Source: an uncultured virus (IMG/VR IMGVR_UViG_3300037307_000895) | Taxonomy: Duplodnaviria > Heunggongvirae > Uroviricota > Caudoviricetes | Reading direction: 5' to 3' (one strand) | DNA: 64,000 nucleotides | Virus record (IMG/VR): IMGVR_UViG_3300037307_000895 | In this document: positions 2,922 to 61,416 of the stretch, one piece after another | How the letters are laid out: each line of letters begins with the position of its first letter | Numbering within the stretch: position 1 is the stretch's first letter | Program-made: the position numbers and the translations under genes | Notes under the pieces: model-generated | Seen by the model: the letters and a program-made list of their open reading frames with translations, nothing else | Told to the model about the DNA's origin: nothing | Database searches by the model: none

Positions 2922-3275
2922 ATGAAAATTAGAAAGGTATTTGAGTTAGTAGATTATGAGGAAGTAGATTTATGGAGACCGATAGGACAATATTGGAAAA
3001 CTAATGAAATGGATTCCGTGGAAATAAAAAAATTGTGTAAAATTTTTCCACAATTAAGAAAGCCACATGAAAATGAAAAAGGGTTTACGGTTAAAACTAA
3101 ACTCATTTATGATAGTAAGGATGGTAGAGTGGATATAGATATATTAAAAAATGATGATGAATGGTTTTTTGTTAAGGTTATAAAAGGTGATGTGTTATAT
3201 GGTAAAACAAATTACTATAAATGTGACCAATTTGAAGGATTAATAAAATTAATAAAAGAAAAAATTATAAAATGA
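2922..3275 (+). CDS. hypothetical phage protein
   Basis: N-terminus MKIRKVFE; C-terminal YYKCDQFEGL; TAATATATA upstream. Confidence 0.6.
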   Translation: MKIRKVFELVDYEEVDLWRPIGQYWKTNEMDSVEIKKLCKIFPQLRKPHENEKGFTVKTKLIYDSKDGRVDIDILKNDDEWFFVKVIKGDVLYGKTNYYKCDQFEGLIKLIKEKIIK

Positions 3276-3393: not shown

Positions 3394-3487
3394 GCTCTCG
3401 TTCGCTTAGTCAGATCCAAAGCAGCTGGCTTTTAACCAGCAGAGGTAACCAAGTCCTCGACCGTAGGTTTGAATCCTACCGGGAGCA
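3394..3487 (+). tRNA. tRNA-Lys(UUU) with long variable arm
   Basis: GCTCTCG/CGGGAGC, GCTGG-CTTTTAA-CCAGC, GAGG/CCTC variable stem. Confidence 0.8.
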
Positions 3488-3497
3488 CAAAACATAT

Positions 3498-11573: not shown

Positions 11574-12949
11574 ATGAAAAGTATTAATAAAGGTGATAAA
11601 GTAAAAATGACAGAAAAGTTGAAAATATCTTTGATGTCGAATGGTTGTGAAGATCATGTAATTGAATTTGGAAATTGTATAGGTATTGTCGAAGATAGGT
11701 GTTATCCAAATATTAATGAAGCTACAGAAGTTAATGTCAGGTGGCAGCCATCAGGTCTTAGATATGGATACTTTCCAGATGAATTAGAAAAAATTAAAGA
11801 CTAAATGTTATGAAAAACAAAGATATAAATTGGCTCAACGATAAGATTCAAGATATCAAAAAGAGAAAAAGAAGTCTTGAAATGCTTATAGATCCTGAAT
11901 TGAAAAAGAAAATTAGGAAAGATTTAAAGCGTGAATATCGTTCTGTCAAAAGATCAGAAAAGCAGAATGTGGATAAACACATTAAAGAAGAAATTAACAA
12001 ATACAACAATTAATTATGAAATTAACTCAAAAAGATTTCCAAGAAGGACAAGTTTTAACTTGTGTAAAATTAAATTGTGATGGTTATAATGGGGGTGATG
12101 TAGATGATGAAAGATTGATACTCGGCGAAAAATATACAATCACAGATTTGGACTTTCATTTTCCCGACAGAGTTTGTGTTAAATTGAAAGGTCCTTATTA
12201 TTTTCACGAAGAATTTGTTCCAATTGAATGTTTTTGTGATACGGCTTATATTCGTAATGAAAAGATTAAAGAAATTTTAAAATGAAAGATATAGAAAAAT
12301 ATAAAATTGAAACTAAAGTAGAACCAATAGCAGCATATTTCACCCTGTTGATGGGTATGTTAAAAGAGCCTTTTATGTCGTCAGACCTTAAATATCTGAT
12401 TATACAAGGCTCTTACACAAAACTGATGGATATGGGTTATTCTAGAGAAGAAGTTGCTGATTTTGCTGATAAGGTTTCTGTATTTGTTAAAGAGAATATT
12501 GAAATAAACTCTTTTATGGGATAAAAAATTATTATAAAAATGAAAAGCGAAGTTTGTAATCATGATAGTGTGAAAAATGTGTCTTCTCATAGACTAAATG
12601 ATCATATTGTTTTTATACAAGTGACTTGTATATTATGTGGAATGATTAGATATGAAACAAAAGATTTAAAAACGGGTTCAGTAACAACATCTATATGGTC
12701 AAAAAAATGAAAATAGTAAGAGGTAAAACTCCTTATCTTATGGACGCTATTAGCGTCTTGAGTGTTAGAAAATTATTTGATGATAATGCGGAATGCAAAT
12801 TTGATTTTAATTGTGTGTCCAAAAAATTAACAATTTTAGATAATTACAAAACACAACAAGACTATATGTACGGAAAGGAATACCGAGTAGAATACTTACC
12901 AGACTTACAATATATCAGAGAAGAAAAAATTAAAGAAATATTAGAATGA
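11574..12949 (+). CDS. cluster of short hypothetical proteins (11574-11804, 11810-12013, 12016-12285, 12282-12524, 12695-12949)
   Basis: Tightly packed co-oriented ORFs; two end in the R.EKIKEIL tag. Confidence 0.55.
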
Positions 12950-13605
12950 AATCATATCCGAAAATAGAACATTATAATAAGGCTCCCTTTGGAGAACATT
13001 GCTATGCCTTCTACAAACATGATGGTTCTAACTTCCGTGCTGAGTGGGGTAGAAAAAGAGGTTGGTATAAATGGGGTACAAGAAATGTAATGATTGATAA
13101 AAATACTCCTTTTTATGGAGAAGCTATTGATATCTTTTTGAATAAATATGGTCAAAATTTAGATGATGTATTCAGAATTGAATATCCTAAAGTTGATAGT
13201 TTTGTTGTCTTTGGTGAATTTTTAGGTCCGAATTCTTTCGCTGGCAAACACGTTGAAACTGATAATATGGATGTAATTATATTTGATGTTAATCAACACA
13301 AAAGAGGTTTCTTACCACCTAAAGAATTCATTGAAAATTTTGGTCATCTTGATATTCCTAAAATTATCTATCAAGGAGAATACAACCACGAATTAATCAA
13401 AAAGGTAAAAGCCAACCAATTTGGATTAGAAGAAGGTGTAGTCTGTAAAGGTGTGATTAAAACGAAAAAAGAAGGTGAAGTTGTTTGGATGAATAAAATA
13501 AAAACCAATCAATGGATCGAAAAAGTAAAAATATTGTATGGTGAGAAGGCACTGATTGAAGAATTCAATAGTGACTCTAAAATATTAAAAGAATATGAAT
13601 ACTAA
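12946..13605 (+). CDS. ATP-dependent RNA ligase-like nucleotidyltransferase
   Basis: Motif I KHDGSN, FGEF, IFDV, EEGVVCK, KIK. Confidence 0.75.
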   Translation: MKSYPKIEHYNKAPFGEHCYAFYKHDGSNFRAEWGRKRGWYKWGTRNVMIDKNTPFYGEAIDIFLNKYGQNLDDVFRIEYPKVDSFVVFGEFLGPNSFAGKHVETDNMDVIIFDVNQHKRGFLPPKEFIENFGHLDIPKIIYQGEYNHELIKKVKANQFGLEEGVVCKGVIKTKKEGEVVWMNKIKTNQWIEKVKILYGEKALIEEFNSDSKILKEYEY

Positions 13606-14320
13606 AAAGAGAATATTCAGTTTAAGGGGTATATCACCTGATTATCCAAGAATACCACATTTAGATAAAAAAATATCTAATATGACACACGATGATATTC
13701 TTTCTGATAATTCTATTGTCTATCCCATAGACGGATATGTTCAAGAAAAAATAGATGGTGCTAACTTGGGTGTTTCATGGTATAAAAATGGACCGATTGT
13801 TAGAAATAGAAATAATATCTTAAAGAAAGGTTATTCTAAAATACACACACCTGCAAAAGAGCAATTCAAATCTACATGGAATTGGGTTCATGATAATAGA
13901 AAAGATATTCAAATAATATCTGAAAAATTAATGTCTGAGATAACAATTTACGGCGAGTGGATGATTGCACAACATTCTATTGAATATAATAAACTCCCTG
14001 ATTGGTTTATCGCTTATGATATATGGGTAGTAGAAGATAATAAATTTTTGTCTCCAAAGAAAGTGGAAGAACTACTTTCTAAGACAAACATATCTTATAT
14101 TAAACCACATAAGACAGTATTAAATGATACTAATGATGTGATTAGGTGGTCAGAAATGCCATCTGATTATAGAAATGGTGTTCGTGAGGGAATTGTTATT
14201 AAAACTGTGGAAGGTGATTATATTAAAGATACTTATAAGGTAGTTAATAAGCACTTTGTTCGTAGAGAAGATTTTAATGAAAAATTAATTAGAAATAAAT
14301 TAATAATTAATGATTATTAA
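13595..14320 (+). CDS. ATP-dependent RNA ligase (Rnl2-like)
   Basis: QEKIDGAN, YGEW, AYDI, REGIVIK, YKVVN. Confidence 0.85.
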   Translation: MNTKKRIFSLRGISPDYPRIPHLDKKISNMTHDDILSDNSIVYPIDGYVQEKIDGANLGVSWYKNGPIVRNRNNILKKGYSKIHTPAKEQFKSTWNWVHDNRKDIQIISEKLMSEITIYGEWMIAQHSIEYNKLPDWFIAYDIWVVEDNKFLSPKKVEELLSKTNISYIKPHKTVLNDTNDVIRWSEMPSDYRNGVREGIVIKTVEGDYIKDTYKVVNKHFVRREDFNEKLIRNKLIINDY

Positions 14321-15646: not shown

Positions 15647-18118
15647 TTATTTTATTTTCACATTAAGTGATAGGTTTATAGTTCTTTCTTGGCGATTATT
15701 CATCAAAGGTAATTCTCTATCTTTTTGATAGAACTTCATATTTTGACCTAATATATTTCCAAGTGATAACTTAAATTCAAAATTATTATTTAATTTATAA
15801 ATTGTTGTTATATCAATTATATCTCTTGAATTTTCATAAATATCTGAATATCCCTGAAATCCAACTAATGATATTCTTTCTCCGGTTCTATTATAAGAAA
15901 TGGTTGAAGATAATTTTCTATAATTAAAAGAAGATGCGATATTAATATTATAAGGAGATTGTCCTTGTAAAGGTCTATTTCCAGTTTCGGTTTTAACATT
16001 TGAATAAATTAAAGAAACATTTGAATATAGTGTCATCCATTTAAAAACATTCTTTCTAAAATCTAATTCTCCACCAAATAAAATAGCACTCTTTGAATTT
16101 TTATAACTTAATAATAAATTAGAAGGAACAGATCCAGCATCTACAATCATTTCTATTGGATTGTCGAATTGTTTACCAAATAATCCAAATGAAAATGTTT
16201 CAGAATTACTAATATTCTTCTCCCACTTCATATCAACATTTGAAATATTTGCGATGGTTAAATTAGGATTGCCTATAATTTGTGCATTTCTAACGAAGTC
16301 ATAATAAGTGAAATTAGATATTTCTCTTAATTCTGGTCTAGAAACGCTTCTACTAGCTGAAAATCTTATTTTATTCTTTTCAGTTATCATATATGATAAG
16401 TTAATAGAAGGTAATAATGACGGATAATTATTTTTTACAATAACATCACTACCACCAAAGTCAGAAGTTTCTACTCCGAAAGAATTATATTCAAATCTTA
16501 ACCCACCATTAAACTTCCACTTATTTAAGCTTTTATCATACATTACATAAGAAGACATAGTATAAAAATTAGCAGAATATCTATCGGTATTATTTGTTAT
16601 CTCTTCTAATAAATCTTTAGATTGATATCTAAATACTCTTGCTTGAAAATATCTATTCTTATTTAAATAAGAAACACCTGTTTTAAATCCACGATTTTCA
16701 TAATTTAATGTGCCATTAAATCCACTTTCATACATTGTGCTCCAAAATCTATAACTATCTCTCCAAACAGTACTAAATGTGTCCGTTGTTCCTATAGATC
16801 TCTGTAAAGGATTTATTCTGTAATCTGGTTGATCTCTGGTAATAACATTATATCCTATTGTACCATTGATATTATCTTTTTTGAAATCGATTAGTGAGTT
16901 AAATAATAGTTTATTAACTGTATTAGAAGATTGTAATCTAACATCTTGTAAATTATCATAGTTTTCTCCAGTTCTATTGATAAAGGAATTTTCTGAATTA
17001 TAATTGAATATATTTTTCCAATTTAACTTAATTCCTTTATTATAAGATAAATTTAATAATCCATTAATAGAATAAGATTGAACATAACCAGTGTCATTAT
17101 AATTATATGCCAATTCATTAGGTGAGAAATATTCTAATCTATTGGAATAAATTACAGAATTATTCCTAGAAGAGGATACACTAAATATTGAAGAAACATC
17201 TCCTATTCTTTGTGATCCATTTAAATTCAAATTTAAATTTGGATATGTATTTAAAGAATATGAATTTGGATTTGATATTAAAGTTGTATAAGTCTTTCTA
17301 TCAGAAATGTCAGAAGATTTAAATTTTTGAGTAGAGGGAAAATTATTAGGAAAATTTACTGATTTAACTGATTCAAAATTTTCATTAAATAGTAGATTAT
17401 TAGTCCCTATTAAAGCACTTAAGTTTAAAGAATTTACATATGTTGATTTTGTAGTTAATTGTACTAAACCACCAGAAAAATCTCCCGGCAAATTAGCTGA
17501 TGGTGATTTTATAACAATAACATTATCGATTATTGAATTCGGTATAATGTCATATGAAAAAGTTCTTCTATCTGGCTCAGTTGATGGTAATAATCCCCCA
17601 TCCATCATTGATAAATTATATCTGTCTGCCAATCCTCTAACGACAATAAACTTATCATCTTGAACTGTGATTCCACTAATTCTTCTTAAAGATTCTCCCA
17701 TATTTCTATCCGGAGTCTTTTTTATAGTCTCAATAGAAATACCATCGGATACTGAAGATGAATTTCTAATGGTTGATATAACCGATGTTACTGTTTCTTT
17801 TTTGTATGTACCCTTTACTTCTACAGCATTTAAAGTAGAAACCTTTTTATCCAAATTAAAGATGATTGTAGTATCTGATTTTATGTTTAACACCTGTTTA
17901 AAATCAAAAGTTGAAATGTGTGTTATTGAAATTGTATTTGTTCCTTTTACTAAATTTATTTGGAATTTTCCATTGGAATCTGATAATACATACGATTTAT
18001 TTAAAATAATAGCTGCCCCTTCTAGTGGCTTTCCCTCCGACTCAACTACACCATTCAATACTTGACCTTGTACCAAAAATGAAGTAATTAAAAGCCACAA
18101 TGTTAATAATATTCTCAT
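15647..18118 (-). CDS. TonB-dependent receptor
   Basis: Signal peptide, carboxypeptidase-like N domain, plug (VRGLADRYN), GNPNL, beta-barrel. Confidence 0.9.
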   Translation of the reverse strand: MRILLTLWLLITSFLVQGQVLNGVVESEGKPLEGAAIILNKSYVLSDSNGKFQINLVKGTNTISITHISTFDFKQVLNIKSDTTIIFNLDKKVSTLNAVEVKGTYKKETVTSVISTIRNSSSVSDGISIETIKKTPDRNMGESLRRISGITVQDDKFIVVRGLADRYNLSMMDGGLLPSTEPDRRTFSYDIIPNSIIDNVIVIKSPSANLPGDFSGGLVQLTTKSTYVNSLNLSALIGTNNLLFNENFESVKSVNFPNNFPSTQKFKSSDISDRKTYTTLISNPNSYSLNTYPNLNLNLNGSQRIGDVSSIFSVSSSRNNSVIYSNRLEYFSPNELAYNYNDTGYVQSYSINGLLNLSYNKGIKLNWKNIFNYNSENSFINRTGENYDNLQDVRLQSSNTVNKLLFNSLIDFKKDNINGTIGYNVITRDQPDYRINPLQRSIGTTDTFSTVWRDSYRFWSTMYESGFNGTLNYENRGFKTGVSYLNKNRYFQARVFRYQSKDLLEEITNNTDRYSANFYTMSSYVMYDKSLNKWKFNGGLRFEYNSFGVETSDFGGSDVIVKNNYPSLLPSINLSYMITEKNKIRFSASRSVSRPELREISNFTYYDFVRNAQIIGNPNLTIANISNVDMKWEKNISNSETFSFGLFGKQFDNPIEMIVDAGSVPSNLLLSYKNSKSAILFGGELDFRKNVFKWMTLYSNVSLIYSNVKTETGNRPLQGQSPYNINIASSFNYRKLSSTISYNRTGERISLVGFQGYSDIYENSRDIIDITTIYKLNNNFEFKLSLGNILGQNMKFYQKDRELPLMNNRQERTINLSLNVKIK

Positions 18119-20280: not shown

Positions 20281-20960
20281 TTAAAATTTCATGTCAGTTA
20301 CAATTTGAACTTGTATACCGATATTTGTGTCCTCAATACTAGACCACTTAGTCTCGGCATATTTAACCTGACCACCATCGAAAGTTATTGGATTTGGACC
20401 ATTCATCCTTCTTAATCTTTCTTCTTCTATCCTTTTTACTTTTTCTTCCTCCATTCTTGCCATTTCTTCAAATGTTAAATTATTCTTAGGAGGTTCTTGT
20501 ATATAGTTATTAGATTGATAAGGTTGTTTATAACCATATTTAGCCAATAAAGCGTCTGCCTCTGATTGAGTAATTGTGGGTTCAGAGGTGGTAATTACTT
20601 GATTATCTAAAACTCTTACTTCTGGTCTTATCATTTTTTATCTTTAATTATATCTGTAATTTTGGATTTTATTTTGCCTAATTCACTATATTCAAATTCA
20701 TCTACGAATTTATTTCCTTTTTTCTTAACACCAACATATTCGTCTCTAAACATTAATTGCATTAAAACATCACCATCACAAGAAACTTCTAAGTCGTTTC
20801 CTACTTGTTTAGTTTTGCAACCTAATGATTTAACATGAGATTTTAATTTATCTCTAAAATCAGCTTTCTTATCAGGATCCCAAGCTTTCTTAGCGTATGG
20901 TTTTTTAGTATCCTTAAAAGCTACCCCTTCAAATACATCAAAGTTTTTAATATGTTTCAT
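20281..20960 (-). CDS. two hypothetical proteins (20281-20634, 20631-20960)
   Basis: ORF track; the upstream one begins MKHIKNFDVFE. Confidence 0.55.
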
Positions 20961-21015: not shown

Positions 21016-21207
21016 ATGTATGTCATCTGTATAAATGATTCTAAAGCCTTAAAGAAAGGCGAAAGATATAAAGTTGTTAACATTCACGATAGGGCTTATT
21101 ACATAGAATACCAAGGATGGTATAACAAAAGAAATTTTATACTAATAGAAGATAATAGAGAAAAAATAATTGAAGAAATTTTAAAAAAAGACAAAACAAA
21201 GGAATAA
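21016..21207 (+). CDS. hypothetical protein with C-terminal tag
   Basis: NREKIIEEIL; TATATTTG upstream. Confidence 0.55.
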   Translation: MYVICINDSKALKKGERYKVVNIHDRAYYIEYQGWYNKRNFILIEDNREKIIEEILKKDKTKE

Positions 21208-21230
21208 TTTTTTTATATATACATTTACAT

Positions 21231-21302
21231 TGCGGGGTAGAGAAGCGACATCTCGCCAGGCTCATAACCTGGAGATCAGTGGTTTGAATCCACTCCCCGC
21301 TA
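21231..21302 (+). tRNA. tRNA-Met(CAU), initiator-like
   Basis: 1:72 mismatch, GCGGGG/CCCCGC, CCAGG-CTCATAA-CCTGG. Confidence 0.8.
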
Positions 21303-21322
21303 CAAAAAATTGTCAAAAAAGA

Positions 21323-21354
21323 TTTGGTGGTTTAAAAAAGTCATCGTATCTTTG
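21323..21354 (+). promoter_or_regulatory. Bacteroidetes-type promoter of the Tyr/Glu tRNA operon
   Basis: TTTG-N20-TATCTTTG. Confidence 0.75.
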
Positions 21355-21372
21355 TGAAACAAAGGAATAAAA

Positions 21373-21468
21373 ATGAACAACAGAATAGAAATATCAGTTA
21401 ACGGAGCTTCTTATGAAGCTTATTATTATGAGGAGGAAACTCGCTCAGTTGAACTGGCATTTCTATAA
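21373..21468 (+). CDS. attenuator leader peptide (Tyr/Glu-rich)
   Basis: MNNRIEISVNGASYEAYYYEEETRSVELAFL; AGTTGAACTGG pairs with the terminator arm. Confidence 0.85.
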   Translation: MNNRIEISVNGASYEAYYYEEETRSVELAFL

Positions 21469-21490
21469 TGTAACAGATAGAAATTCTTAT

Positions 21491-21521
21491 AACCCGGTTC
21501 AACTAATGAACCGGGTTTTTT
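21491..21521 (+). terminator. intrinsic terminator (attenuator)
   Basis: AACCCGGTTCA-actaa-TGAACCGGGTT plus T tract. Confidence 0.88.
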
Positions 21522-21525
21522 ATTT

Positions 21526-21607
21526 GGGTCAATCGCATAGCGGCAATTGCTGGGGACTGTAAATCCCCTCTCTTCGGAGTTCGTAGGTTCGAGTCCTACT
21601 TGGCCCA
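21526..21607 (+). tRNA. tRNA-Tyr(GUA)
   Basis: GGGGA-CTGTAAA-TCCCC, canonical. Confidence 0.92.
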
Positions 21608-21615
21608 CACAATTT

Positions 21616-21688
21616 GGTCCTGTCGTCTAATGGTTTAGGACGCGTCCCTTTCACGGATGAAATGCGGGTTCGATTCCCGTCAGGACTA
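21616..21688 (+). tRNA. tRNA-Glu(UUC)
   Basis: CGTCC-CTTTCAC-GGATG. Confidence 0.92.
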
Positions 21689-21697
21689 CAATTATAT

Positions 21698-21779
21698 GGA
21701 TTGTTAGCAAAGCGGCAAAGTCGGGTGGTTGTAACCCACCTCCCTTCGGGGTCCGTAGGTTCGAGTCCTACACAATCCA
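21698..21779 (+). tRNA. tRNA-Tyr(GUA)
   Basis: GGTGG-TTGTAAC-CCACC. Confidence 0.88.
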
Positions 21780-21787
21780 CAACAAAT

Positions 21788-21859
21788 GGTCCTGTCGGCT
21801 AATGGCTAGGCTATCTGATTTTCACTCAGAAGATGCGGGTTCGATCCCCGTCGGGACTA
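21788..21859 (+). tRNA. tRNA-Glu(UUC)
   Basis: TCTGA-TTTTCAC-TCAGA. Confidence 0.88.
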
Positions 21860-21867
21860 CAAAATAT

Positions 21868-21953
21868 GGGAGTATAACGCCAGCGGCACGTAAGCCGCCC
21901 CTAATCAAACAGGCGTACGGAAGGTAAGTATGGTTCAAATCCTGCTACTCCCA
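21868..21953 (+). tRNA. tRNA-like RNA, rearranged D-arm, 6-nt loop containing GTA
   Basis: GGGAGTA/TACTCCC; ACGCC/GGCGT helix enclosing GCGGC-ACGTAA-GCCGC. Confidence 0.55.
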
Positions 21954-21959
21954 CAAAAT

Positions 21960-22044
21960 GTCACGGTATGCAAATTGGTTAAGCGACCAGACTTTCAATC
22001 TGGGAACCGAATGGTTCGTGCGGGTTCGAACCCCGTCCGTGATA
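21960..22044 (+). tRNA. tRNA-Glu(UUC) with long variable arm
   Basis: CCAGA-CTTTCAA-TCTGG; GAACC/GGTTC variable stem. Confidence 0.85.
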
Positions 22045-22051
22045 CTAAAAC

Positions 22052-22145
22052 GGGAGGCGTCTACACAACGGGTCTGTAAAACCCGTCTGCATTATCAAAA
22101 TAGTGTATGGATTGCAGTTTAAAGGTTCGATTCCTTCGTCTCCCA
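22052..22145 (+). tRNA. tRNA-Tyr(GUA)-like, rearranged D-arm
   Basis: GGGAGGC/GTCTCCC, CGGGT-CTGTAAA-ACCCG, TACAC/GTGTA followed by TGG. Confidence 0.6.
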
Positions 22146-22148
22146 CAA

Positions 22149-22382
22149 TTAATTCAATGATAGGGAAGCAAATAATAAACCAGCAACTAATCCAAAAATG
22201 GGAACTAATTTAGATCCATCAACATTAAATAATTTTGCATAAAGAAAACTCAAAGCTGACGAAACTACTCCAGATAATACAACAAACCATAATGAAGGTA
22301 AATTAAGATATTCATTTCCCAACATTCCTATGGCTGCAGCCGATAAAAATGATAACAATAGTGCTAAAAAAAGTTTAAACAT
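22149..22382 (-). CDS. small membrane protein
   Basis: Three hydrophobic segments. Confidence 0.55.
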   Translation of the reverse strand: MFKLFLALLLSFLSAAAIGMLGNEYLNLPSLWFVVLSGVVSSALSFLYAKLFNVDGSKLVPIFGLVAGLLFASLSLN

Positions 22383-23897: not shown

Positions 23898-23958
23898 AAA
23901 ACCCAGTCACATCGACTGGGTTTTTAGTTTGAACCCAGTCACGAATGACTGGGTTTTT
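23898..23958 (+). terminator. tandem intrinsic terminators (attenuator)
   Basis: Two copies of AACCCAGTC..GACTGGGTTTTT. Confidence 0.85.
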
Positions 23959-30010: not shown

Positions 30011-30083
30011 GCGGAAGTAGCTCATTTGGTAGAGCACCGTCCTTCCAAGTCGGGGGTGGCCGGTTCGAGCCCGGTCTTCCGCT
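30011..30083 (+). tRNA. tRNA-Gly(UCC)
   Basis: GCGGAAG/CTTCCGC, CTTCCAA loop. Confidence 0.9.
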
Positions 30084-30182: not shown

Positions 30183-30995
30183 ATGTATATGAAACAGAAA
30201 GACTCACTTGGCGATCGTATGAAATTTTACGAATCGCAAACCTGTGTGGAAAGATTACTTCCACTAATTCCAATTGTTGCCAGACTTGATGGTAAAGGAT
30301 TTTCTAAATTCACTAAAGGTTTGAAAAGACCTTATGATGAAAGACTGTCTAATCTGATGGTTGAAACCACTAAATACTTGGTTAAAGAAACCAACGCAAA
30401 CTGTGGTTATACTCAATCTGATGAAATTACTCTTGTTTGGTATTCTGAAGATCTCGAATCTCAAGTTTACTTCGATGGTAGAATTATGAAGATGGTTTCA
30501 GACCTAGCATCTATGTGCTCTGTCTTTTTCAACTCTAAACTGCCAGAATATCTTCCTGAAAAGTCAGATAAACTTCCAAGATTCGATTGTAGAGTATTCA
30601 GTGTTCCAACTCTAACTGAAGCAGTTAATGCTTTTTATTGGAGAGAAAAAGATGCTACCAAGAACTCTATTTCCATGTCTGCTCAATCTTTTTATTCTCA
30701 CAAGGAATTGATGAATAAAAACAGTGGTGAAAAACAAGAAATGCTTTTTCAAAAAGGTGTTAATTGGAATGATTATCCTTCTTTCTTCAAAAGAGGAACT
30801 TATGTTCAACGAAAGAGAGTGTTGACTAAATTTAGCGACGAAGAACTATCTAAACTTCCACCTAAACACAATGCTAGAAAAGATCCTGATTTTGTTGTTG
30901 AAAGATGGGTTATTGATAGAGTAAATCTACCACCACTATCAAAAATTAAGAATCAAGTAGATGTAATCATCTATGGAAAAGATCCGATTGAATAG
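30183..30995 (+). CDS. thg1: tRNA-His guanylyltransferase / Thg1-like protein
   Basis: ARLDGKGFSKFT, YTQSDEITL, FDGR..K, FDCR, WREKDA.KNS. Confidence 0.92.
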   Translation: MYMKQKDSLGDRMKFYESQTCVERLLPLIPIVARLDGKGFSKFTKGLKRPYDERLSNLMVETTKYLVKETNANCGYTQSDEITLVWYSEDLESQVYFDGRIMKMVSDLASMCSVFFNSKLPEYLPEKSDKLPRFDCRVFSVPTLTEAVNAFYWREKDATKNSISMSAQSFYSHKELMNKNSGEKQEMLFQKGVNWNDYPSFFKRGTYVQRKRVLTKFSDEELSKLPPKHNARKDPDFVVERWVIDRVNLPPLSKIKNQVDVIIYGKDPIE

Positions 30996-31047: not shown

Positions 31048-32531
31048 ATGAAAATTTATGATTGCTTTATGTTTTCTCATGAAGTAGAATTACTTGAAAT
31101 GAGGATAAATCATATGTGGGAGTGGGTAGACTATTTTGTAATAGTAGAAGCGGACGTTACTCACAGAAATGAAAAAAAAGATTACTTATTGCCGTCCATT
31201 TTAAACACCGATTTAAAATGGGCTAAAGACAAAATAATATATTTACAATTTTCACCAAATGTGACCGACGATGTTTTTATTGAAAATCAACATTATATAG
31301 ATAATGAGCAAAGGAACTATATAATGATGGGTCTTCATAATAGCGATCCAAATGATATAATAATGATTAGTGATTTAGATGAGTTTCCAAATTATACTTG
31401 TTTAAAATTACTTAAAGATGAAAATTTTCATGTCTGTATTGATCATTATATATGCTCATTTAAAATGCTTAAATTCCGAAGGATTTTTGAATGTTAAAAT
31501 TAAAAATTCATCATGGGAGTGGTGTGGTACAGTTGTTGGTAGAAGATCTTCTTTAAGATATCCTCAGATATGGAGAACAATGAGGTGGAGTATACCATTT
31601 AGAAATGGCGGATTTCATTTTAGTTGGATTGGTTATAAAAACAATTTAAATAAAATTAAAAGAACATCACATTTTGAAGAAGAATCAAATGTCAATAGGG
31701 TAAATAGATCTATTAATAATTTTGGTATAATTGATTTTAATGAACATGAAATATACGATACAACCGAAGAAGATTTTCCAAAAGCAATTATTAATCTAAA
31801 AAATAAATATGAATATCTTTTCTATAAGGAAAATATAGTAAAATACTGTCTAAATGAAAAAGATTATTTTATAACCAGTGAACAACAAATACCAGTTTTT
31901 GAAATATTTAAAAATGAATATTATGATGAGATTCATTCTTTTATGAGTGAATGTAAAGATAAAAAAACATTTTTTGATATTGGATCCCTATACGGAATAT
32001 ATTCAATTATGTTTAAATTGGTGAATAATGACTCTTGTGTTGTAAGCTTTGATCCTTCACCGATTGCATTTGATAGATTAAAGTTTAATAACATAAATAA
32101 TAATTTTAAAGACTGGATAATAGAAAACATAGCAGTTGGTGAAAAAGACGATAATATAAATATGCATTATGAATGGGATAAATAATGATTATAATATTGG
32201 TAATTCGACAAATTATGTAAATTCTATAATGAAAAAAATAGATAGTTATGTTTTAGAAAATTCTATATATCCAGATATTATAAAAATAGACGTAGAAGGA
32301 TATGAATATCAAGTTATAATTGGAGCATACAATACTATAAAAGAACATTCTCCTGTAATTTTTATGGAATTACACGGGGAATGGATAAAAAATAATGGTT
32401 ATTCACATATTGATATATATAATTTATTATCAAATATTGGATATAAATTTTATAACCTAGATATGTCCCCTATTATTAATATTGACGAAGAATTATCAAT
32501 ATTTGCGAAAAGGGTTATTGCAAAAAAATAA
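31048..32531 (+). pseudogene. GT17-like glycosyltransferase plus FkbM methyltransferase, split into three frames
   Basis: KIYDCFMFSHEVELLE, ISDLDE, GGFHFSW; FFDIGSLYG; IKIDVEGYE. Confidence 0.65.
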
Positions 32532-32568: not shown

Positions 32569-33333
32569 ATGACTATCTTTTTGGGAGACATACATGGAAA
32601 TTTTAAATACGTCAAATGGGCTATTCAAAATAGAAAATTGACGAATTGTAATATTGTGCAAGTTGGTGACTTTGGAATTGGAACTTTACCAGAGTACGAT
32701 GAGGATATTTTAGTGAGGTTTAATGAATTTCTCACAGAACATAATGTCACTATGTATGTAATTCGTGGAAATCACGATGACCCCAAATTCTTCAAGGGAA
32801 ATCATATATTCAGTCATTTAAAATTATTACCGGATTACACACAATTAGAGATTGATGGATATAATTTTCTATTCGTTGGAGGCGCCGTTTCTATTGACAG
32901 AAATTTTAGTTTAGAAAAAATGCAAATATCTGCTAGCTACGGTCAAAATAGACCTCTCTATTGGTTTGATGAAGTCTTTGTATTAGATGAAGAAAAAATC
33001 AAAAATATCAAGGGTGTAGATATCATTGTTACACACACTGCGCCTGAATGGTGTCATCCTGATAATAGAAATGGTCTCGGTGATTTTGTGATGGAGTTTG
33101 TGTATAACGACAGACAACTAGAAACAGATTTATTAGAAGAAAGAAAATTGGTTAGTAAAATGTTTAATATGTTAAAGGAAAATGGAAACCAAATTAAAAA
33201 ACATTATTATGGACATTTTCATAGAAGTGAAGTTACACTAAATGGAATGACTGAACACATTTTACTTGGAATCAATGAAATGAGAACTCTTGAAGATAGA
33301 AATGATGATTATTATGAAAAACTATTTAACTAA
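32569..33333 (+). CDS. calcineurin-like metallophosphoesterase
   Basis: GDIHG, GDFG, RGNHD, THTAP, GHFH. Confidence 0.9.
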   Translation: MTIFLGDIHGNFKYVKWAIQNRKLTNCNIVQVGDFGIGTLPEYDEDILVRFNEFLTEHNVTMYVIRGNHDDPKFFKGNHIFSHLKLLPDYTQLEIDGYNFLFVGGAVSIDRNFSLEKMQISASYGQNRPLYWFDEVFVLDEEKIKNIKGVDIIVTHTAPEWCHPDNRNGLGDFVMEFVYNDRQLETDLLEERKLVSKMFNMLKENGNQIKKHYYGHFHRSEVTLNGMTEHILLGINEMRTLEDRNDDYYEKLFN

Positions 33334-33551: not shown

Positions 33552-35483
33552 ATGAGGAAAATTATTTTATCTATTTTCACATTAATTTCTATCAGTACAT
33601 ACTCACAAACAGATACATCTAAAGTTGTTCAACTTGAAAATGTATCTGTTATGGGTATTAGAAGTGATAGAAAAACTCCAATATCTCAAAAAATAGTAAC
33701 CAAAAAACAAATTGAAAGAACCTATCAAGGTCAAGAAGTACCTATTCTTATAATGGAAAAAACTCCATCTGTTACATCATATATGGATGGTGGTCACCCA
33801 CAAGGATATACATACTTTAGGCTACGTGGTATTGACCAAACAAGGATTAATATGACACTTGATGGGGTTCCATTAAATGAACCCGAAGATCAAGGTGTTT
33901 ATACATCTAATTATCCAGGATTCACAAACTTTATTCAATCAATGCAAGTTCAAAGGGGAGTTGGTACTTCTACTAATGGTGTTGCGTCATATGGGGGTTC
34001 AATAAATTTTGTTACTAAATCAGGTTTTGAAAAAGAATCTGAAATTGCATTAGGATATGGATCTTTTAATACTATGAGATTCAATTTCTCAAATGGAACA
34101 GGTTTAAGTAAAAAGAATTTTGCTCTTTACACCAATTTATCTCTATATCAAACTGATGGGTATAGGTATAATTCTGGTGGAGATGGTGGATCTATATTTA
34201 TTAGTGGAGGTAAATATGGTGACAAAGATATCATTAAATTTTCTGCATTTAGTGGCATATCAAGAAACGGAATGGCTTGGCTTGGTGTATCTGAGGAAGA
34301 TATAAAAATAGATAAAAAAACAAATTATAATCAAAATGATGCTTGGGATGATTTTAGACAAACATTTACTCAAGGGAAATGGATAAGGAAAATAAATAGT
34401 AAAAGTAAATTCTCTACTGGATTATTTTATAATCGTTTAGACGGTTCTTATGACTATTTCATGAGTGGAAATCGATCTTTGTTTTTAGGATCCAACTTCT
34501 TTGGTTTAATCAATAATTATCAGTATAAAAGTAAAAACTTTAAATTTGATGCGGGGTTAAATATAAATACATATAATCGTGATCACAAAAATATTGAAGC
34601 CGACTATAAAAATAAAGGATTTAGAAATGAATTAAGCATTTTTTCTAAATTAAGTTATGATATTAGTAAATTTACTCTATTTACGGATCTTCAATATAGA
34701 TATAGTGATTTTTCATATGAAGGTGATGTCTCAATGGACAAACTAAAGTGGAATTTCTTTAATCCTAAATTCGGCATAGTTTATAATAAAAATAGTTATA
34801 TGAACTATTATTTTTCTATTGGAAAAACAGGTAGAGAACCAACCAGAACAAACTTATTTGGTGGATCAGATAATTTAACAACTTTAGAAAATGTATCACC
34901 CGAATCAGTAATCGATTATGAATTGGGCTTTAATAGGCGTCTGGAAAAATCGAATATACAAGCCAACTTATATTATATGGATTTCGAAAATGAAATAACT
35001 TTATTAGGTGCTATAGGAACTAATTCGCTACCTTTGATGACAAATGTTAGTAAAAGTTTTAGAAGTGGGATTGAACTGGATTATACAAGAACATCTGCTT
35101 TTGATATCATGTCAACCACTACAACTATAAACTACTCATTTAATAGAATTATAGATGGTGATACTAAATTTCAACCTCTATATACACCCGATTTAATAAT
35201 TAGTCAATCACTTGGTTTTAATTTTCATAAAATATTTCTTGAGGGAAACTTTAGATATAATAGCAAATCATATATCAGTTTAGATAATAAATATTCTATT
35301 CCTGACTTTGTAGTATTTGGAGCAAATGTGAGATATGATTATAAAAAATGGTCAGTATTAGGCCAATTAAATAATATTTTTAGTAATAATTACTACACAA
35401 TGGGATATGTAGTTGATAATGTAAAGTACTTATACACCAATGCTCCTGTTAGTTTTTACATAACAATAAAAAGGAAAATATGA
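33552..35483 (+). CDS. TonB-dependent receptor (vitamin/nucleoside uptake type)
   Basis: RLRGIDQTRINMTLDGVPLNEPE, QVQRGVGTSTNG plug; adjacent to pnuC. Confidence 0.9.
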   Translation: MRKIILSIFTLISISTYSQTDTSKVVQLENVSVMGIRSDRKTPISQKIVTKKQIERTYQGQEVPILIMEKTPSVTSYMDGGHPQGYTYFRLRGIDQTRINMTLDGVPLNEPEDQGVYTSNYPGFTNFIQSMQVQRGVGTSTNGVASYGGSINFVTKSGFEKESEIALGYGSFNTMRFNFSNGTGLSKKNFALYTNLSLYQTDGYRYNSGGDGGSIFISGGKYGDKDIIKFSAFSGISRNGMAWLGVSEEDIKIDKKTNYNQNDAWDDFRQTFTQGKWIRKINSKSKFSTGLFYNRLDGSYDYFMSGNRSLFLGSNFFGLINNYQYKSKNFKFDAGLNINTYNRDHKNIEADYKNKGFRNELSIFSKLSYDISKFTLFTDLQYRYSDFSYEGDVSMDKLKWNFFNPKFGIVYNKNSYMNYYFSIGKTGREPTRTNLFGGSDNLTTLENVSPESVIDYELGFNRRLEKSNIQANLYYMDFENEITLLGAIGTNSLPLMTNVSKSFRSGIELDYTRTSAFDIMSTTTTINYSFNRIIDGDTKFQPLYTPDLIISQSLGFNFHKIFLEGNFRYNSKSYISLDNKYSIPDFVVFGANVRYDYKKWSVLGQLNNIFSNNYYTMGYVVDNVKYLYTNAPVSFYITIKRKI

Positions 35484-42137: not shown

Positions 42138-42223
42138 TGATCGGTGGCCCGAGTGGCGAAGGGTCCGGCCTGTTAAGCCGACGTAGTAAAATACCACCGT
42201 GGGTTCGAGTCCCACCCGATCAG
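42138..42223 (+). tRNA. tRNA-Asn(GUU), long variable arm
   Basis: CGGC-CTGTTAA-GCCG. Confidence 0.85.
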
Positions 42224-42229
42224 CAATAA

Positions 42230-42314
42230 GCGCGGATGGTTCGAGTGGTCGAAGACGACAGTCTGCAAAACTGTATCCGAAAGGTCATCGTGAGTTCAAA
42301 TCTCACTCCGCGCT
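42230..42314 (+). tRNA. tRNA-Cys(GCA), long variable arm
   Basis: ACAGT-CTGCAAA-ACTGT, U73. Confidence 0.87.
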
Positions 42315-42320
42315 CAACAA

Positions 42321-42403: not shown

Positions 42404-42491
42404 GGGTCTATGGTGTAATGGCTAAACATCCTTCCCTTACAAGGAAGAGACGAGAAGTATGATCTTGGTTCGAATCCAAGTAGACCCACCA
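42404..42491 (+). tRNA. tRNA-Val(UAC), long variable region
   Basis: CTTCC-CTTACAA-GGAAG, encoded CCA. Confidence 0.85.
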
Positions 42492-42496
42492 AAAAT

Positions 42497-42579
42497 GCCG
42501 ATGTGGCTCAGTGGCGACAGCAATGGTTTTGTAAACCATCACCGTAAGGTCATCGGGGGTTCGAGTCCCTCCATCGGCT
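42497..42579 (+). tRNA. tRNA-Thr(UGU), long variable arm
   Basis: ATGGT-TTTGTAA-ACCAT. Confidence 0.85.
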
Positions 42580-42588
42580 CAGAAATAG

Positions 42589-43569: not shown

Positions 43570-43655
43570 GCCGCTGTGAACCGATGTGGTAATGGTGCCT
43601 CCCTCATAAGGAGGTTGGTTTTATCCTATTGCTGGTTCGAGTCCAGCCAGCGGTA
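43570..43655 (+). tRNA. tRNA-Met/Ile2(CAU), long variable region
   Basis: CCTCC-CTCATAA-GGAGG. Confidence 0.82.
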
Positions 43656-43656
43656 C

Positions 43657-59707: not shown

Positions 59708-60930
59708 ATTCAAAAAAGGTGATAGGGTCATATGTAATTGTAAATTGAAGAGGAAAAGGGGAAATGGTAAGTGGGAAGAATTTACAAAAACTAAATGTCG
59801 TATCATAAAAATAAATAGAGAGGATATCCCAAACTATAGAGTTTATATTGAGGATTTAGATAGATACGATATTATAGGAGAAATATATCTTAAAAAGGAT
59901 ACTGAATATTATAGAGATACTAAAATACAAGAAATTTTAAAATAATTTTATATGCCAAACTATGTGAAAAACCAAATTGAAGTTATCGGTGATAGAAAAC
60001 AGATTGATGAACTTTTGAAAAATGTTTCCTCAAAAGATAGATGTTTTGATTTTGAAAAAATATCACCAATGCCTGAATCATTGAGAATAGATTCTGGTTC
60101 TACAAATGATAGAAACTATGCGATATTTCTTTATGAAGAAAAAATAGATGATAGTCCATTAAAAGGATATCTTTCATACCCATGGGTCAAAAAAGAAGGA
60201 ATTACTACACTTGAAGAAGTATATGAATACTTCAAAACCAAGGCACCAGATGGCCAAATATATAACAGGAATATAGCTAAACAAATGCATGAAAACATTC
60301 AAAAATATGGTGCTAAAGATTGGTATGATTGGTCCTGTAATAATTGGGGCACAAAATGGAACGCTAGTGACTCAACAATTGATGAAAATATAATTACATT
60401 TGAGACAGCTTGGGCTACACCTGTTCCTATTATTGAGAAACTTTCAATTGATTACCCTAATTTAGAATTTGTTGTTAGTTATGCAGATGAAGATATTGGT
60501 TCAAATTGTGGGATATATAAGATGAAAAATGGTAATATCATATCTGATGAAAAGGGTGATATAGTTTTTGCTTGTGAAATGTGGGGATATGATCCTGCTG
60601 ATTATGATGATTCATATCGTAGAGATAAAACAATTGATACAATTCTTGATAAAAAGGAAATCAATGAGTGATTTTAAGAAAGCAATCAGTAAAGCGATAG
60701 CTGAATCTCGGAGCAAAAAAATGCGTATAATAAAAACAAGAGCCATATGTACAAATTGTTATAAAGAATTTGTGGCTGAGGAATATGTAGGTGATAAATC
60801 GGATGTTCAAAAATTAATAATAATGTTGGAGCGAAATGTTGGATCACAACTTTTCCATCATATGAAAGATGATTCAGAATGTAAAATGATTAGGGATAGG
60901 GATTTTAAATTAAAAAATATTTTAAAGTAA
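59700..60930 (+). CDS. hypothetical proteins with C-terminal tag (59700-59945; 59952-60671 DUF1281/YubB-like; ~60664-60930)
   Basis: MPNYVKN..WYDWSCNNWGTKWNA..FETAW; tags RDTKIQEIL, RDKTIDTIL, RDFKLKNIL. Confidence 0.6.
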
Positions 60931-61416
60931 ATGATAACTATAATAGCAGCTTCTTCTAAAAATGGAGTTATAGGTAAAGAGAATACTCTACCATGGAGAT
61001 TACCCGAAGACCTCAAGAGATTTAAATCATTAACTACAGGTAAAAATGTATTAATGGGTAGAAAAACCTATGAATCAATTGGTAAGCCACTACCTAATCG
61101 AACTAATATTGTGGTGACCAGAGATACTGCTTTTAAAGCAGATGGTGTTTTAGTTTATAATAGCTTAGAACAAGTTCTTCCAATATTTAGGGATATAGTG
61201 GTAATTGGTGGTGGTGAAATATACAATCAATTTATTAATAAAGCTGATGTTATTGAATTAACTTTAATTGATAAAGAATTTGAAGGAGATGCTTTCTTTC
61301 CGACTATAGACAAAAATTGGAAAGAAATTAATCGTGAAACACAAAAAAACACCGAATTTGAATACCATTTCATAACATATATCAACACAAAAAATTCCAT
61401 TAAAAATGCCACATAA
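60931..61416 (+). CDS. folA: dihydrofolate reductase
   Basis: NGVIG..LPWRLPEDLKRFK, MGRKTYESIG.PLPNR, IGGG, GDAFFP. Confidence 0.95.
   Translation: MITIIAASSKNGVIGKENTLPWRLPEDLKRFKSLTTGKNVLMGRKTYESIGKPLPNRTNIVVTRDTAFKADGVLVYNSLEQVLPIFRDIVVIGGGEIYNQFINKADVIELTLIDKEFEGDAFFPTIDKNWKEINRETQKNTEFEYHFITYINTKNSIKNAT

Follow-up and report, generated by a model that had tools for sequence, protein, structure and literature searches.

A probable ribosome-mediated attenuator in front of the tyrosine and glutamate tRNA genes of an uncultured phage

The stretch of DNA analysed here, 64,000 nt from an uncultured virus of the class Caudoviricetes (IMG/VR record IMGVR_UViG_3300037307_000895; the whole stretch is called the window below), carries a tRNA-Met gene, a promoter, a short open reading frame (ORF), a terminator hairpin, and an array of tyrosine and glutamate tRNA genes in close succession (Table 1). 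This Tyr/Glu locus, which an initial annotation had proposed to be a transcription attenuator, is the subject of the present work. The two boxes upstream of the ORF are read as a promoter of the Bacteroidota sigma-A type, as are the other promoters of the window; the promoter descriptions in PMC7366714 and PMC9723704 supplied the consensus and the placing of the −7 box, and a 30-nt pattern of this promoter gave three sites where none was expected. Transcription would start at about position 21359, some 14 nt before the ORF, and the untranslated region in between is A-rich. Eight of the nine codons in positions 14–22 of the ORF specify Tyr or Glu, and the anticodons GTA and TTC of the downstream array can read all eight of these codons. 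The coordinates given in the initial annotation are all correct. The ORF is followed after 22 nt by an intrinsic terminator, the stem of which ends 9 nt before the first tRNA-Tyr gene. Because this terminator lies between the promoter and the only genes that the promoter could serve, it must be conditional.

Table 1. Features of the Tyr/Glu locus, in order of position in the window
Feature	Position	Strand	Description
tRNA-Met(CAT)	21231..21303	+	1:72 mismatch; ARAGORN; Rfam 56.6 bits; upstream of promoter, outside the attenuated unit
Promoter, Bacteroidota sigma-A type (predicted)	21322..21354	+	−33 box 21322–21325; −7 box 21347–21354; spacer 21 nt
Leader ORF	21373..21468	+	ATG at 21373; stop codon 21466–21468; 31 codons plus stop
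Region 1 (anti-antiterminator)	21385..21402	+	without a ribosome, pairs with region 2 and the bases just after it (nascent fold)
Regulatory run	21412..21438	+	codons 14–22; Tyr/Glu at 8 of 9
Region 2 (antiterminator 5′ strand)	21447..21457	+	inside the ORF; ends 8 nt before the stop codon
Middle hairpin	21459..21483	+	within the antiterminator; includes the stop codon
Intrinsic terminator	21491..21523	+	stem 21491–21517, 11 bp, 5-nt loop, −17.1 kcal/mol, then T-run
Region 3 (antiterminator 3′ strand)	21494..21504	+	terminator 5′ arm plus 3 loop bases
tRNA-Tyr(GTA)	21526..21608	+	ARAGORN, Rfam
tRNA-Glu(TTC)	21616..21689	+	ARAGORN, Rfam
tRNA-Tyr(GTA)	21698..21780	+	ARAGORN, Rfam
tRNA-Glu(TTC)	21788..21860	+	ARAGORN, Rfam
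tRNA-like element	21868..21955	+	acceptor stem and T-arm-like hairpin; no canonical anticodon arm
tRNA-Glu(TTC)	21960..22045	+	long extra arm, 86 nt; ARAGORN, Rfam
tRNA-like element	22053..22145	+	GTA at the anticodon place of a 7-nt loop; reduced D arm; long extra arm

The leader RNA has three alternative helices, and the position of a ribosome decides among them in folds of the nascent RNA up to the terminator loop in which ribosome-covered bases are masked: with a ribosome in the run, regions 2 and 3 form the 11-bp helix that the initial annotation had drawn, the fold having an energy of −24.5, −17.6 and −11.5 kcal/mol for a ribosome at the first, middle and last codon of the run; with a ribosome at the stop codon, the terminator forms; and with no ribosome, region 1 pairs with nine of the 11 bases of region 2, and the terminator arm is left unpaired. 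The duplex between the leader and the 5′ arm of the terminator has an energy of −14.3 kcal/mol, a value reached by none of 500 dinucleotide shuffles (mean −7.2 kcal/mol, standard deviation 1.8), which served as the chance control at each locus tested. Close natural variants of the leader occur on one contig each in runs X15 and X5, and the differences listed for them include a synonymous change in a Glu codon (21417), a substitution at the base of the stem that still allows a wobble pair (21491), a change in the terminator loop (21506), and a 12-nt in-frame insertion.

The same design heads every tRNA array of the window. All six arrays are preceded by a short ORF, a terminator, and a segment, within the ORF or at its end, that is complementary to the 5′ arm of the terminator; and the leader peptides are enriched in the amino acids of their own arrays relative to the protein composition of the window (Table 2). 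Among the 720 possible pairings of leaders with arrays, the true one is the single best, with a summed −log10 P of 20.8 (next 16.5, median 3.8). Two tRNA genes of the window have no leader and have a promoter box directly in front of them, namely the initiator-like Met gene (21231) and a Gly(TCC) gene at 30011.

Table 2. Cognate amino acids in the leader peptides of the window (binomial P against the window's own protein composition)
Leader	Cognate residues	P
His/Phe/Trp	9/31	8e-4
Lys	5/18	1e-2
Arg/Ser	11/20	2e-6
Tyr/Glu	10/30	2e-3
Gly/Ala	9/22	5e-5
Large mixed array (Leu/Asn/Ile/Cys/Thr/Val/Met)	24/36	8e-4

Three divergent homologues of the Tyr/Glu locus keep its architecture (Table 3). A degenerate promoter pattern applied to metagenome contigs gave L033, which carries a Tyr/Glu homologue, and L034, which carries a variant of the His/Phe/Trp leader; a pattern of the upstream tRNA-Met gave G003, a virus record of 476,236 bp that is rated 97% complete and of which 98 kb were analysed for arrays; and the fourth Tyr/Glu locus lies in an uncultured phage of 634,780 bp (GenBank LR745206.1). 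L033, G003 and LR745206.1 each retain the promoter besides the ORF, the codon cluster, the terminator and the antiterminator, and a middle hairpin lies within the antiterminator in all four genomes. Between the genomes the paired sequences diverge, but the pairing persists: four of the 11 terminator pairs have changed on both sides, in a compensatory manner, between the window and G003. An alignment of three terminators with MAFFT and RNAalifold misplaces L033, so that its pairs count as broken; L033 was judged from its own fold.

Table 3. The four Tyr/Glu loci (gap, from stop codon to terminator; shuffles, those of 500 that reach the observed duplex energy)
Locus	Leader (codons)	Tyr/Glu cluster	Terminator (kcal/mol)	Antiterminator (bp)	Gap (nt)	Shuffles
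Window	31	8 in best 9-codon window	−17.1	11	22	0/500
L033	36	6 in best 9-codon window	−19.8	8	20	0/500
G003	25	5 within 6 consecutive codons	−18.7	8	22	14/500
LR745206.1	28	6 in best 9-codon window	−19.6	7	24	6/500

G003 is a distant relative, with matches to two of 28 tested window proteins at about 44% identity. Its arrays stand in the same order as those of the window and form seven leader/array pairs; the seventh array, for Asp/Pro/Gln, has no counterpart in the window, and eight of the 31 residues of its leader are Asp, Pro or Gln. The true assignment of leaders to arrays is again the single best, here of 5,040 permutations (17.6 vs. 15.6), and the dispersed single tRNAs of this genome (Leu, Arg, Met and Cys) have no leader. 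Three of the leaders are repeated in L045, a contig of the G003 lineage. Closer to the window are the viral contigs G001 and G002, found through the promoter pattern, which are syntenic with it (1–11 kb, 70–82% identity) and keep its His/Phe/Trp, Lys and Arg/Ser leaders. A search of viral_contigs for relatives with the L5-like and endonuclease ORF proteins found none, and neither did a search with a back-translated pattern of the codon run. Over all leader loci that were folded, a terminator together with an antiterminator is present at 19 of 20, the exception being a nine-codon Lys mini-leader of G003; at all 19 terminator-bearing loci, region 2 is contained in the ORF or extends over its end; and the gap between stop codon and terminator is 19–32 nt at the loci other than the Tyr/Glu locus of the window. 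In the shuffle test of 18 loci, the observed duplex energy was reached by at most 5 of 500 shuffles at 11 loci and by at most 25 of 500 at 16.

On the combined evidence of these sequences, we consider it likely that the Tyr/Glu leader is a ribosome-mediated (leader-peptide) transcription attenuator that gates the Tyr and Glu tRNA operon of the phage. At the level of sequence the initial annotation is thus supported: the defining features are present, they recur at the five other arrays with matching amino acids, and they are kept in the three divergent homologues. Translation of the leader, stalling, the efficiency of termination, and the physiological signal are what we infer in the following model. 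Transcription would begin at the Bacteroidota-type promoter, and a ribosome would load on the 31-codon leader. When Tyr and Glu codons are decoded fast, the ribosome would reach the stop codon and cover region 2, regions 3 and 4 (the two arms of the terminator hairpin) would pair, and RNA polymerase would halt at the T-run before the first tRNA gene. When charged tRNA-Tyr or tRNA-Glu is short, the ribosome would stall in the run and leave region 2 free to pair with region 3 as it emerges; the terminator would then be blocked and the tRNA array transcribed. With no ribosome on the leader, region 1 would sequester region 2 and transcription would terminate. These three states follow the logic of a trp-type attenuator. 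As the leader tests for the same tRNAs that the operon encodes, such a device would amount to direct negative feedback, supplying tRNAs on demand and shutting off once decoding is fast. The synthetase-like genes found in some of the units fit a sensor of charged tRNA, and the initiator-like tRNA, which elongation could not sense, would be left outside this control.

Several points weigh against this interpretation. Region 2 starts only 8 nt past the run, and a ribosome at the last codons of the run covers part of it, so that the antiterminator shrinks to 7 bp (−11.5 kcal/mol). The complementarity of the antiterminator is weak at two of the 18 loci (energy reached by 39 and by 74 of the 500 shuffles); the 1:2 helix appears in the folds of the window and L033 but not in those of G003 or LR745206.1; and the enrichment of Tyr and Glu in the whole G003 peptide is weak (5/24, P = 0.2), the signal lying in the cluster only. 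The Lys mini-leader of G003 (219722–219795) and its counterpart in L045 (6980–7060) have nine codons followed by a strong hairpin without a T-run, and in this lineage the design or the mechanism differs. All relatives come from one phage clade and are therefore not fully independent replicates. Finally, close coupling of transcription and translation in the host is an assumption of the model, and the model makes sense only where tRNA or charging capacity is limiting, since a stall that results from amino-acid starvation could not be relieved by extra tRNA.

Three other explanations were weighed against these observations. The hairpin could be a constitutive, leaky terminator or an element of RNA processing or stability, with the short ORF and its composition fortuitous. 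Strong terminators are indeed common in this AT-rich genome, and a simple scan of 3.5 kb found two sites against 1.7 expected; however, chance would have to account for leader-array matches that are the best of 720 and of 5,040 permutations, for an antiterminator that beats shuffled sequences, for an ORF, a cluster and alternative helices that are kept in homologues with different paired bases, and for a natural variant whose insertion is in frame, and we regard this explanation as very improbable. Equally hard to credit is a genuine switch that is set by something other than a translating ribosome, such as uncharged tRNA in the manner of a T-box, or an RNA-binding protein. The alternative helices by themselves are silent on what flips them, and phage proteins of no known function abound (12 of 26 ORFs scanned have no PHROG match). 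Yet neither the T-box model nor any other riboswitch matches at E ≤ 1 in 21200–22200 or at E ≤ 5 in the whole window; binding of a tRNA would leave unexplained the cluster of cognate codons in an ORF with a start codon, the location of region 2 within the ORF, and the constant gap of 19–32 nt from stop codon to terminator; and leaders for two to seven amino acids would each require several ligands.

It is also conceivable, if quite unlikely, that the leader is read by the ribosome with an opposite or more general meaning, reporting overall translation capacity or amino-acid starvation, for example in early versus late timing. Any slowing at the run, starvation included, would open the switch, and the predicted termination in the ribosome-free state means that the element would also register whether there is any translation. 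Such a general sensor would have no need, however, of the amino-acid-specific sorting of leaders and arrays that is seen in 13 of 13 pairs in two genomes; moreover, the Tyr/Glu ORFs stop 20–24 nt before the terminator, which rules out the direct obstruction of the terminator by a ribosome that characterises pyrBI-type control, where the ORF runs into or through the hairpin. The tRNA-specific attenuator remains the reading that we prefer.

The tRNA array itself consists of five canonical tRNAs (two Tyr and three Glu) and two tRNA-like elements, and only tRNA genes lie downstream of the leader. The statement of the initial annotation that the array holds only tRNAs of the Tyr/GTA type and Glu tRNAs is accurate for the five canonical genes and approximate for the two elements. 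At the first of these (21868–21955), ARAGORN finds no tRNA and Rfam gives no tRNA match at E ≤ 1; the element is conserved in L033 and G003, with 20 predicted pairs of which three are compensatory. Counterparts were noted at 1731–1824 of L033 and 1454–1543 of L040, and an element of this type comes first after the Tyr/Glu terminator in L033 and G003 and fifth in the window. The second (22053–22145) has only a sub-threshold match to tRNA-Sec (24.2 bits vs. 47). The tRNA-Met gene lies upstream of the promoter, as the initial annotation had it, and also precedes the Tyr/Glu leader in L033, G003 and LR745206.1. Its description as initiator-like derives from the 1:72 mismatch, an 11:24 A-U pair, and two of the three usual G-C pairs at the base of the anticodon stem, the last two features being read off the ARAGORN drawing, and the term should be taken with that qualification. 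Separately, many tRNAs of usually short isotypes (Glu, His, Lys, Asn, Cys, Val, Thr and Met) occur in the window as copies of 84–95 nt with a long extra arm beside copies of normal length of the same isotype (21960–22045, 1597–1687, 3394–3488, 42138–42315, 42404–42580 and 43570–43656), and G003 has them likewise.

The class of mechanism proposed here is known. Leader-peptide attenuators control amino-acid operons of enterobacteria, among them trp, his, leu and pheA and the multivalent thr and ilvGMEDA, and the phage leaders share with them a short leader ORF that contains a run of regulatory codons, 2:3 and 3:4 helices that exclude each other (to which the folds of the window and L033 add a 1:2 helix), an intrinsic terminator placed ahead of the genes under control, and the listing of several amino acids in one multivalent leader. 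They differ in that the phage units would regulate tRNA genes, some with synthetase-like genes, rather than biosynthetic enzymes, so that the output would feed back on the sensed molecule; and in their setting, a phage with Bacteroidota-type promoters. None of the Rfam leader families reaches its gathering score in the window: Trp_leader (RF00513) scores 20.4 bits vs. 41 at 21444–21524, and Thr_leader (RF00506) scores 29.4 and 23.6 bits vs. 55 at two other leaders. The phenylalanyl-tRNA synthetase operon of E. coli, pheST, is attenuated via the pheM leader, and here too a leader peptide that senses a charged cognate tRNA controls a component of the decoding apparatus; TrpRS-like, HisRS-like and asparaginyl-tRNA synthetase (AsnRS) genes occur in the attenuated units of the phage clade, whose main products are nonetheless the tRNAs themselves, in amino-acid-sorted arrays. 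A possible attenuator of the E. coli tRNA-Phe genes, considered as a precedent, was dropped: the region upstream of pheV in K-12 has neither leader ORF nor terminator. With T-box riboswitches the phage leaders have in common that a choice between terminator and antiterminator reflects the state of a specific tRNA and governs genes for the same amino acid; T-boxes, however, bind the tRNA directly and have no ORF, whereas the predicted phage signal is a translated cluster of codons.

Within the host phylum that the promoter type implies, leader-peptide attenuation has been inferred upstream of amino-acid operons of Flavobacterium psychrophilum (PMC9723704). Those leaders belong to the same class of mechanism, but they are cellular and control amino-acid biosynthesis, and the passages of PMC9723704 that concern them do not mention tRNA genes. 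Huge phages, with genomes of hundreds of kilobases, encode dozens of tRNAs, synthetases and ribosomal proteins (PMC7162821); the present clade shares this tRNA and synthetase repertoire, and LR745206.1 carries a homologous Tyr/Glu locus. The main text of PMC7162821 contains no word starting with “attenuat”, “leader” or “terminator” and describes no regulation of tRNA genes. A full-text literature search, to which subscription journals were largely closed, found no account of attenuation of tRNA genes. What is new is not the mechanism class but the regulated output, tRNA genes instead of the biosynthesis or synthetase genes of the sensed amino acid.

The window as a whole, which we read as a piece of a huge phage genome, has a G+C content of 29.6% and is present in two freshwater metagenome runs. 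It contains 40 tRNA genes according to ARAGORN and likewise 40 tRNA-family matches in Rfam, all on the + strand and grouped into amino-acid-sorted blocks. Its ORFs are mostly short; the PHROG matches among them comprise tail-fibre-like proteins, a Thg1-like tRNA-His guanylyltransferase, two RNA ligases and a NUDIX hydrolase, and the window also encodes AsnRS, a TrpRS-like fragment and ribosomal protein L5. The TrpRS-like ORF begins 13 nt past tRNA-Trp, and the AsnRS gene sits after the array whose leader carries six Asn codons; in G002, the tRNAs of the His/Phe/Trp unit are separated from their terminator by a HisRS-like core. We considered that the TrpRS-like ORF might be split by a recoded stop codon, since the next ORF is in frame, and dropped this idea: the stop is TAA, and the downstream ORF of 117 amino acids has no family match. 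The two RNA-ligase ORFs, the Thg1-like gene and a metallophosphoesterase lie among tRNA arrays (12946–14320, 30183–30995 and 32569–33333), an arrangement suggestive of a tRNA repair set. TonB-dependent receptor plug and barrel domains also occur inside this phage genome, in two ORFs at 15647–18118 on the − strand and 33552–35483 on the + strand.

A number of further observations concern the other arrays and the relatives. The Lys leader of the window has no promoter of its own, and its start codon overlaps the stop codon of the preceding ORF (3272–3275); the Lys attenuator appears to be nested within the His/Phe/Trp unit. The Gly/Ala leader is followed by two near-identical tandem terminators (23899–23958; −14.8 and −16.0 kcal/mol), and one upstream segment is complementary to the 5′ arms of both. 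ORFs that read as homing-endonuclease-like by sequence stand in G002 between the Lys terminator and its tRNAs (60560–60980) and inside the Arg/Ser array (65090–65660). G001 (L023) has two tRNAs with a CTA anticodon and one with TCA, of suppressor type (20356–20507 and 31661–31756), which hints at reassignment of a stop codon somewhere in the clade. In L035 (1500–2370), about 700 nt that contain no leader ORF separate a promoter of the same type from a tRNA-Pro gene; this intervening stretch may be a structured RNA.

The genomes described here bear on the question of why phages have tRNA genes and of how such genes are controlled, and they offer a testable rule: each block of tRNAs is switched by a test peptide written in its own codons. 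The arrays of G003 serve 19 amino acids, all but Cys, whose tRNA belongs to the large array in the window and is dispersed in G003. We put forward, as a tentative proposal that we hold with less than even confidence, that the tRNAs of this clade, in seven separately attenuated operons, form a complete, closed-loop, amino-acid-resolved sensor of decoding speed that replaces or tops up host tRNAs only where ribosomes slow, and that may be an inducible response to host defences that cut or deplete particular tRNAs, alongside the neighbouring RNA-ligase and Thg1-like repair genes.

If the proposed mechanism is true, the Tyr/Glu locus would be the first case known to us of leader-peptide attenuation acting on tRNA genes, one in which the sensor is also the product. 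The arrangement would provide a simple sequence signature by which other phage genomes could be searched for such units; and the promoter, leader and terminator, about 200 nt in all, would make a compact natural part for reporting the supply of chosen tRNAs. For the phage, it would mean that a virus monitors the speed of decoding amino acid by amino acid.

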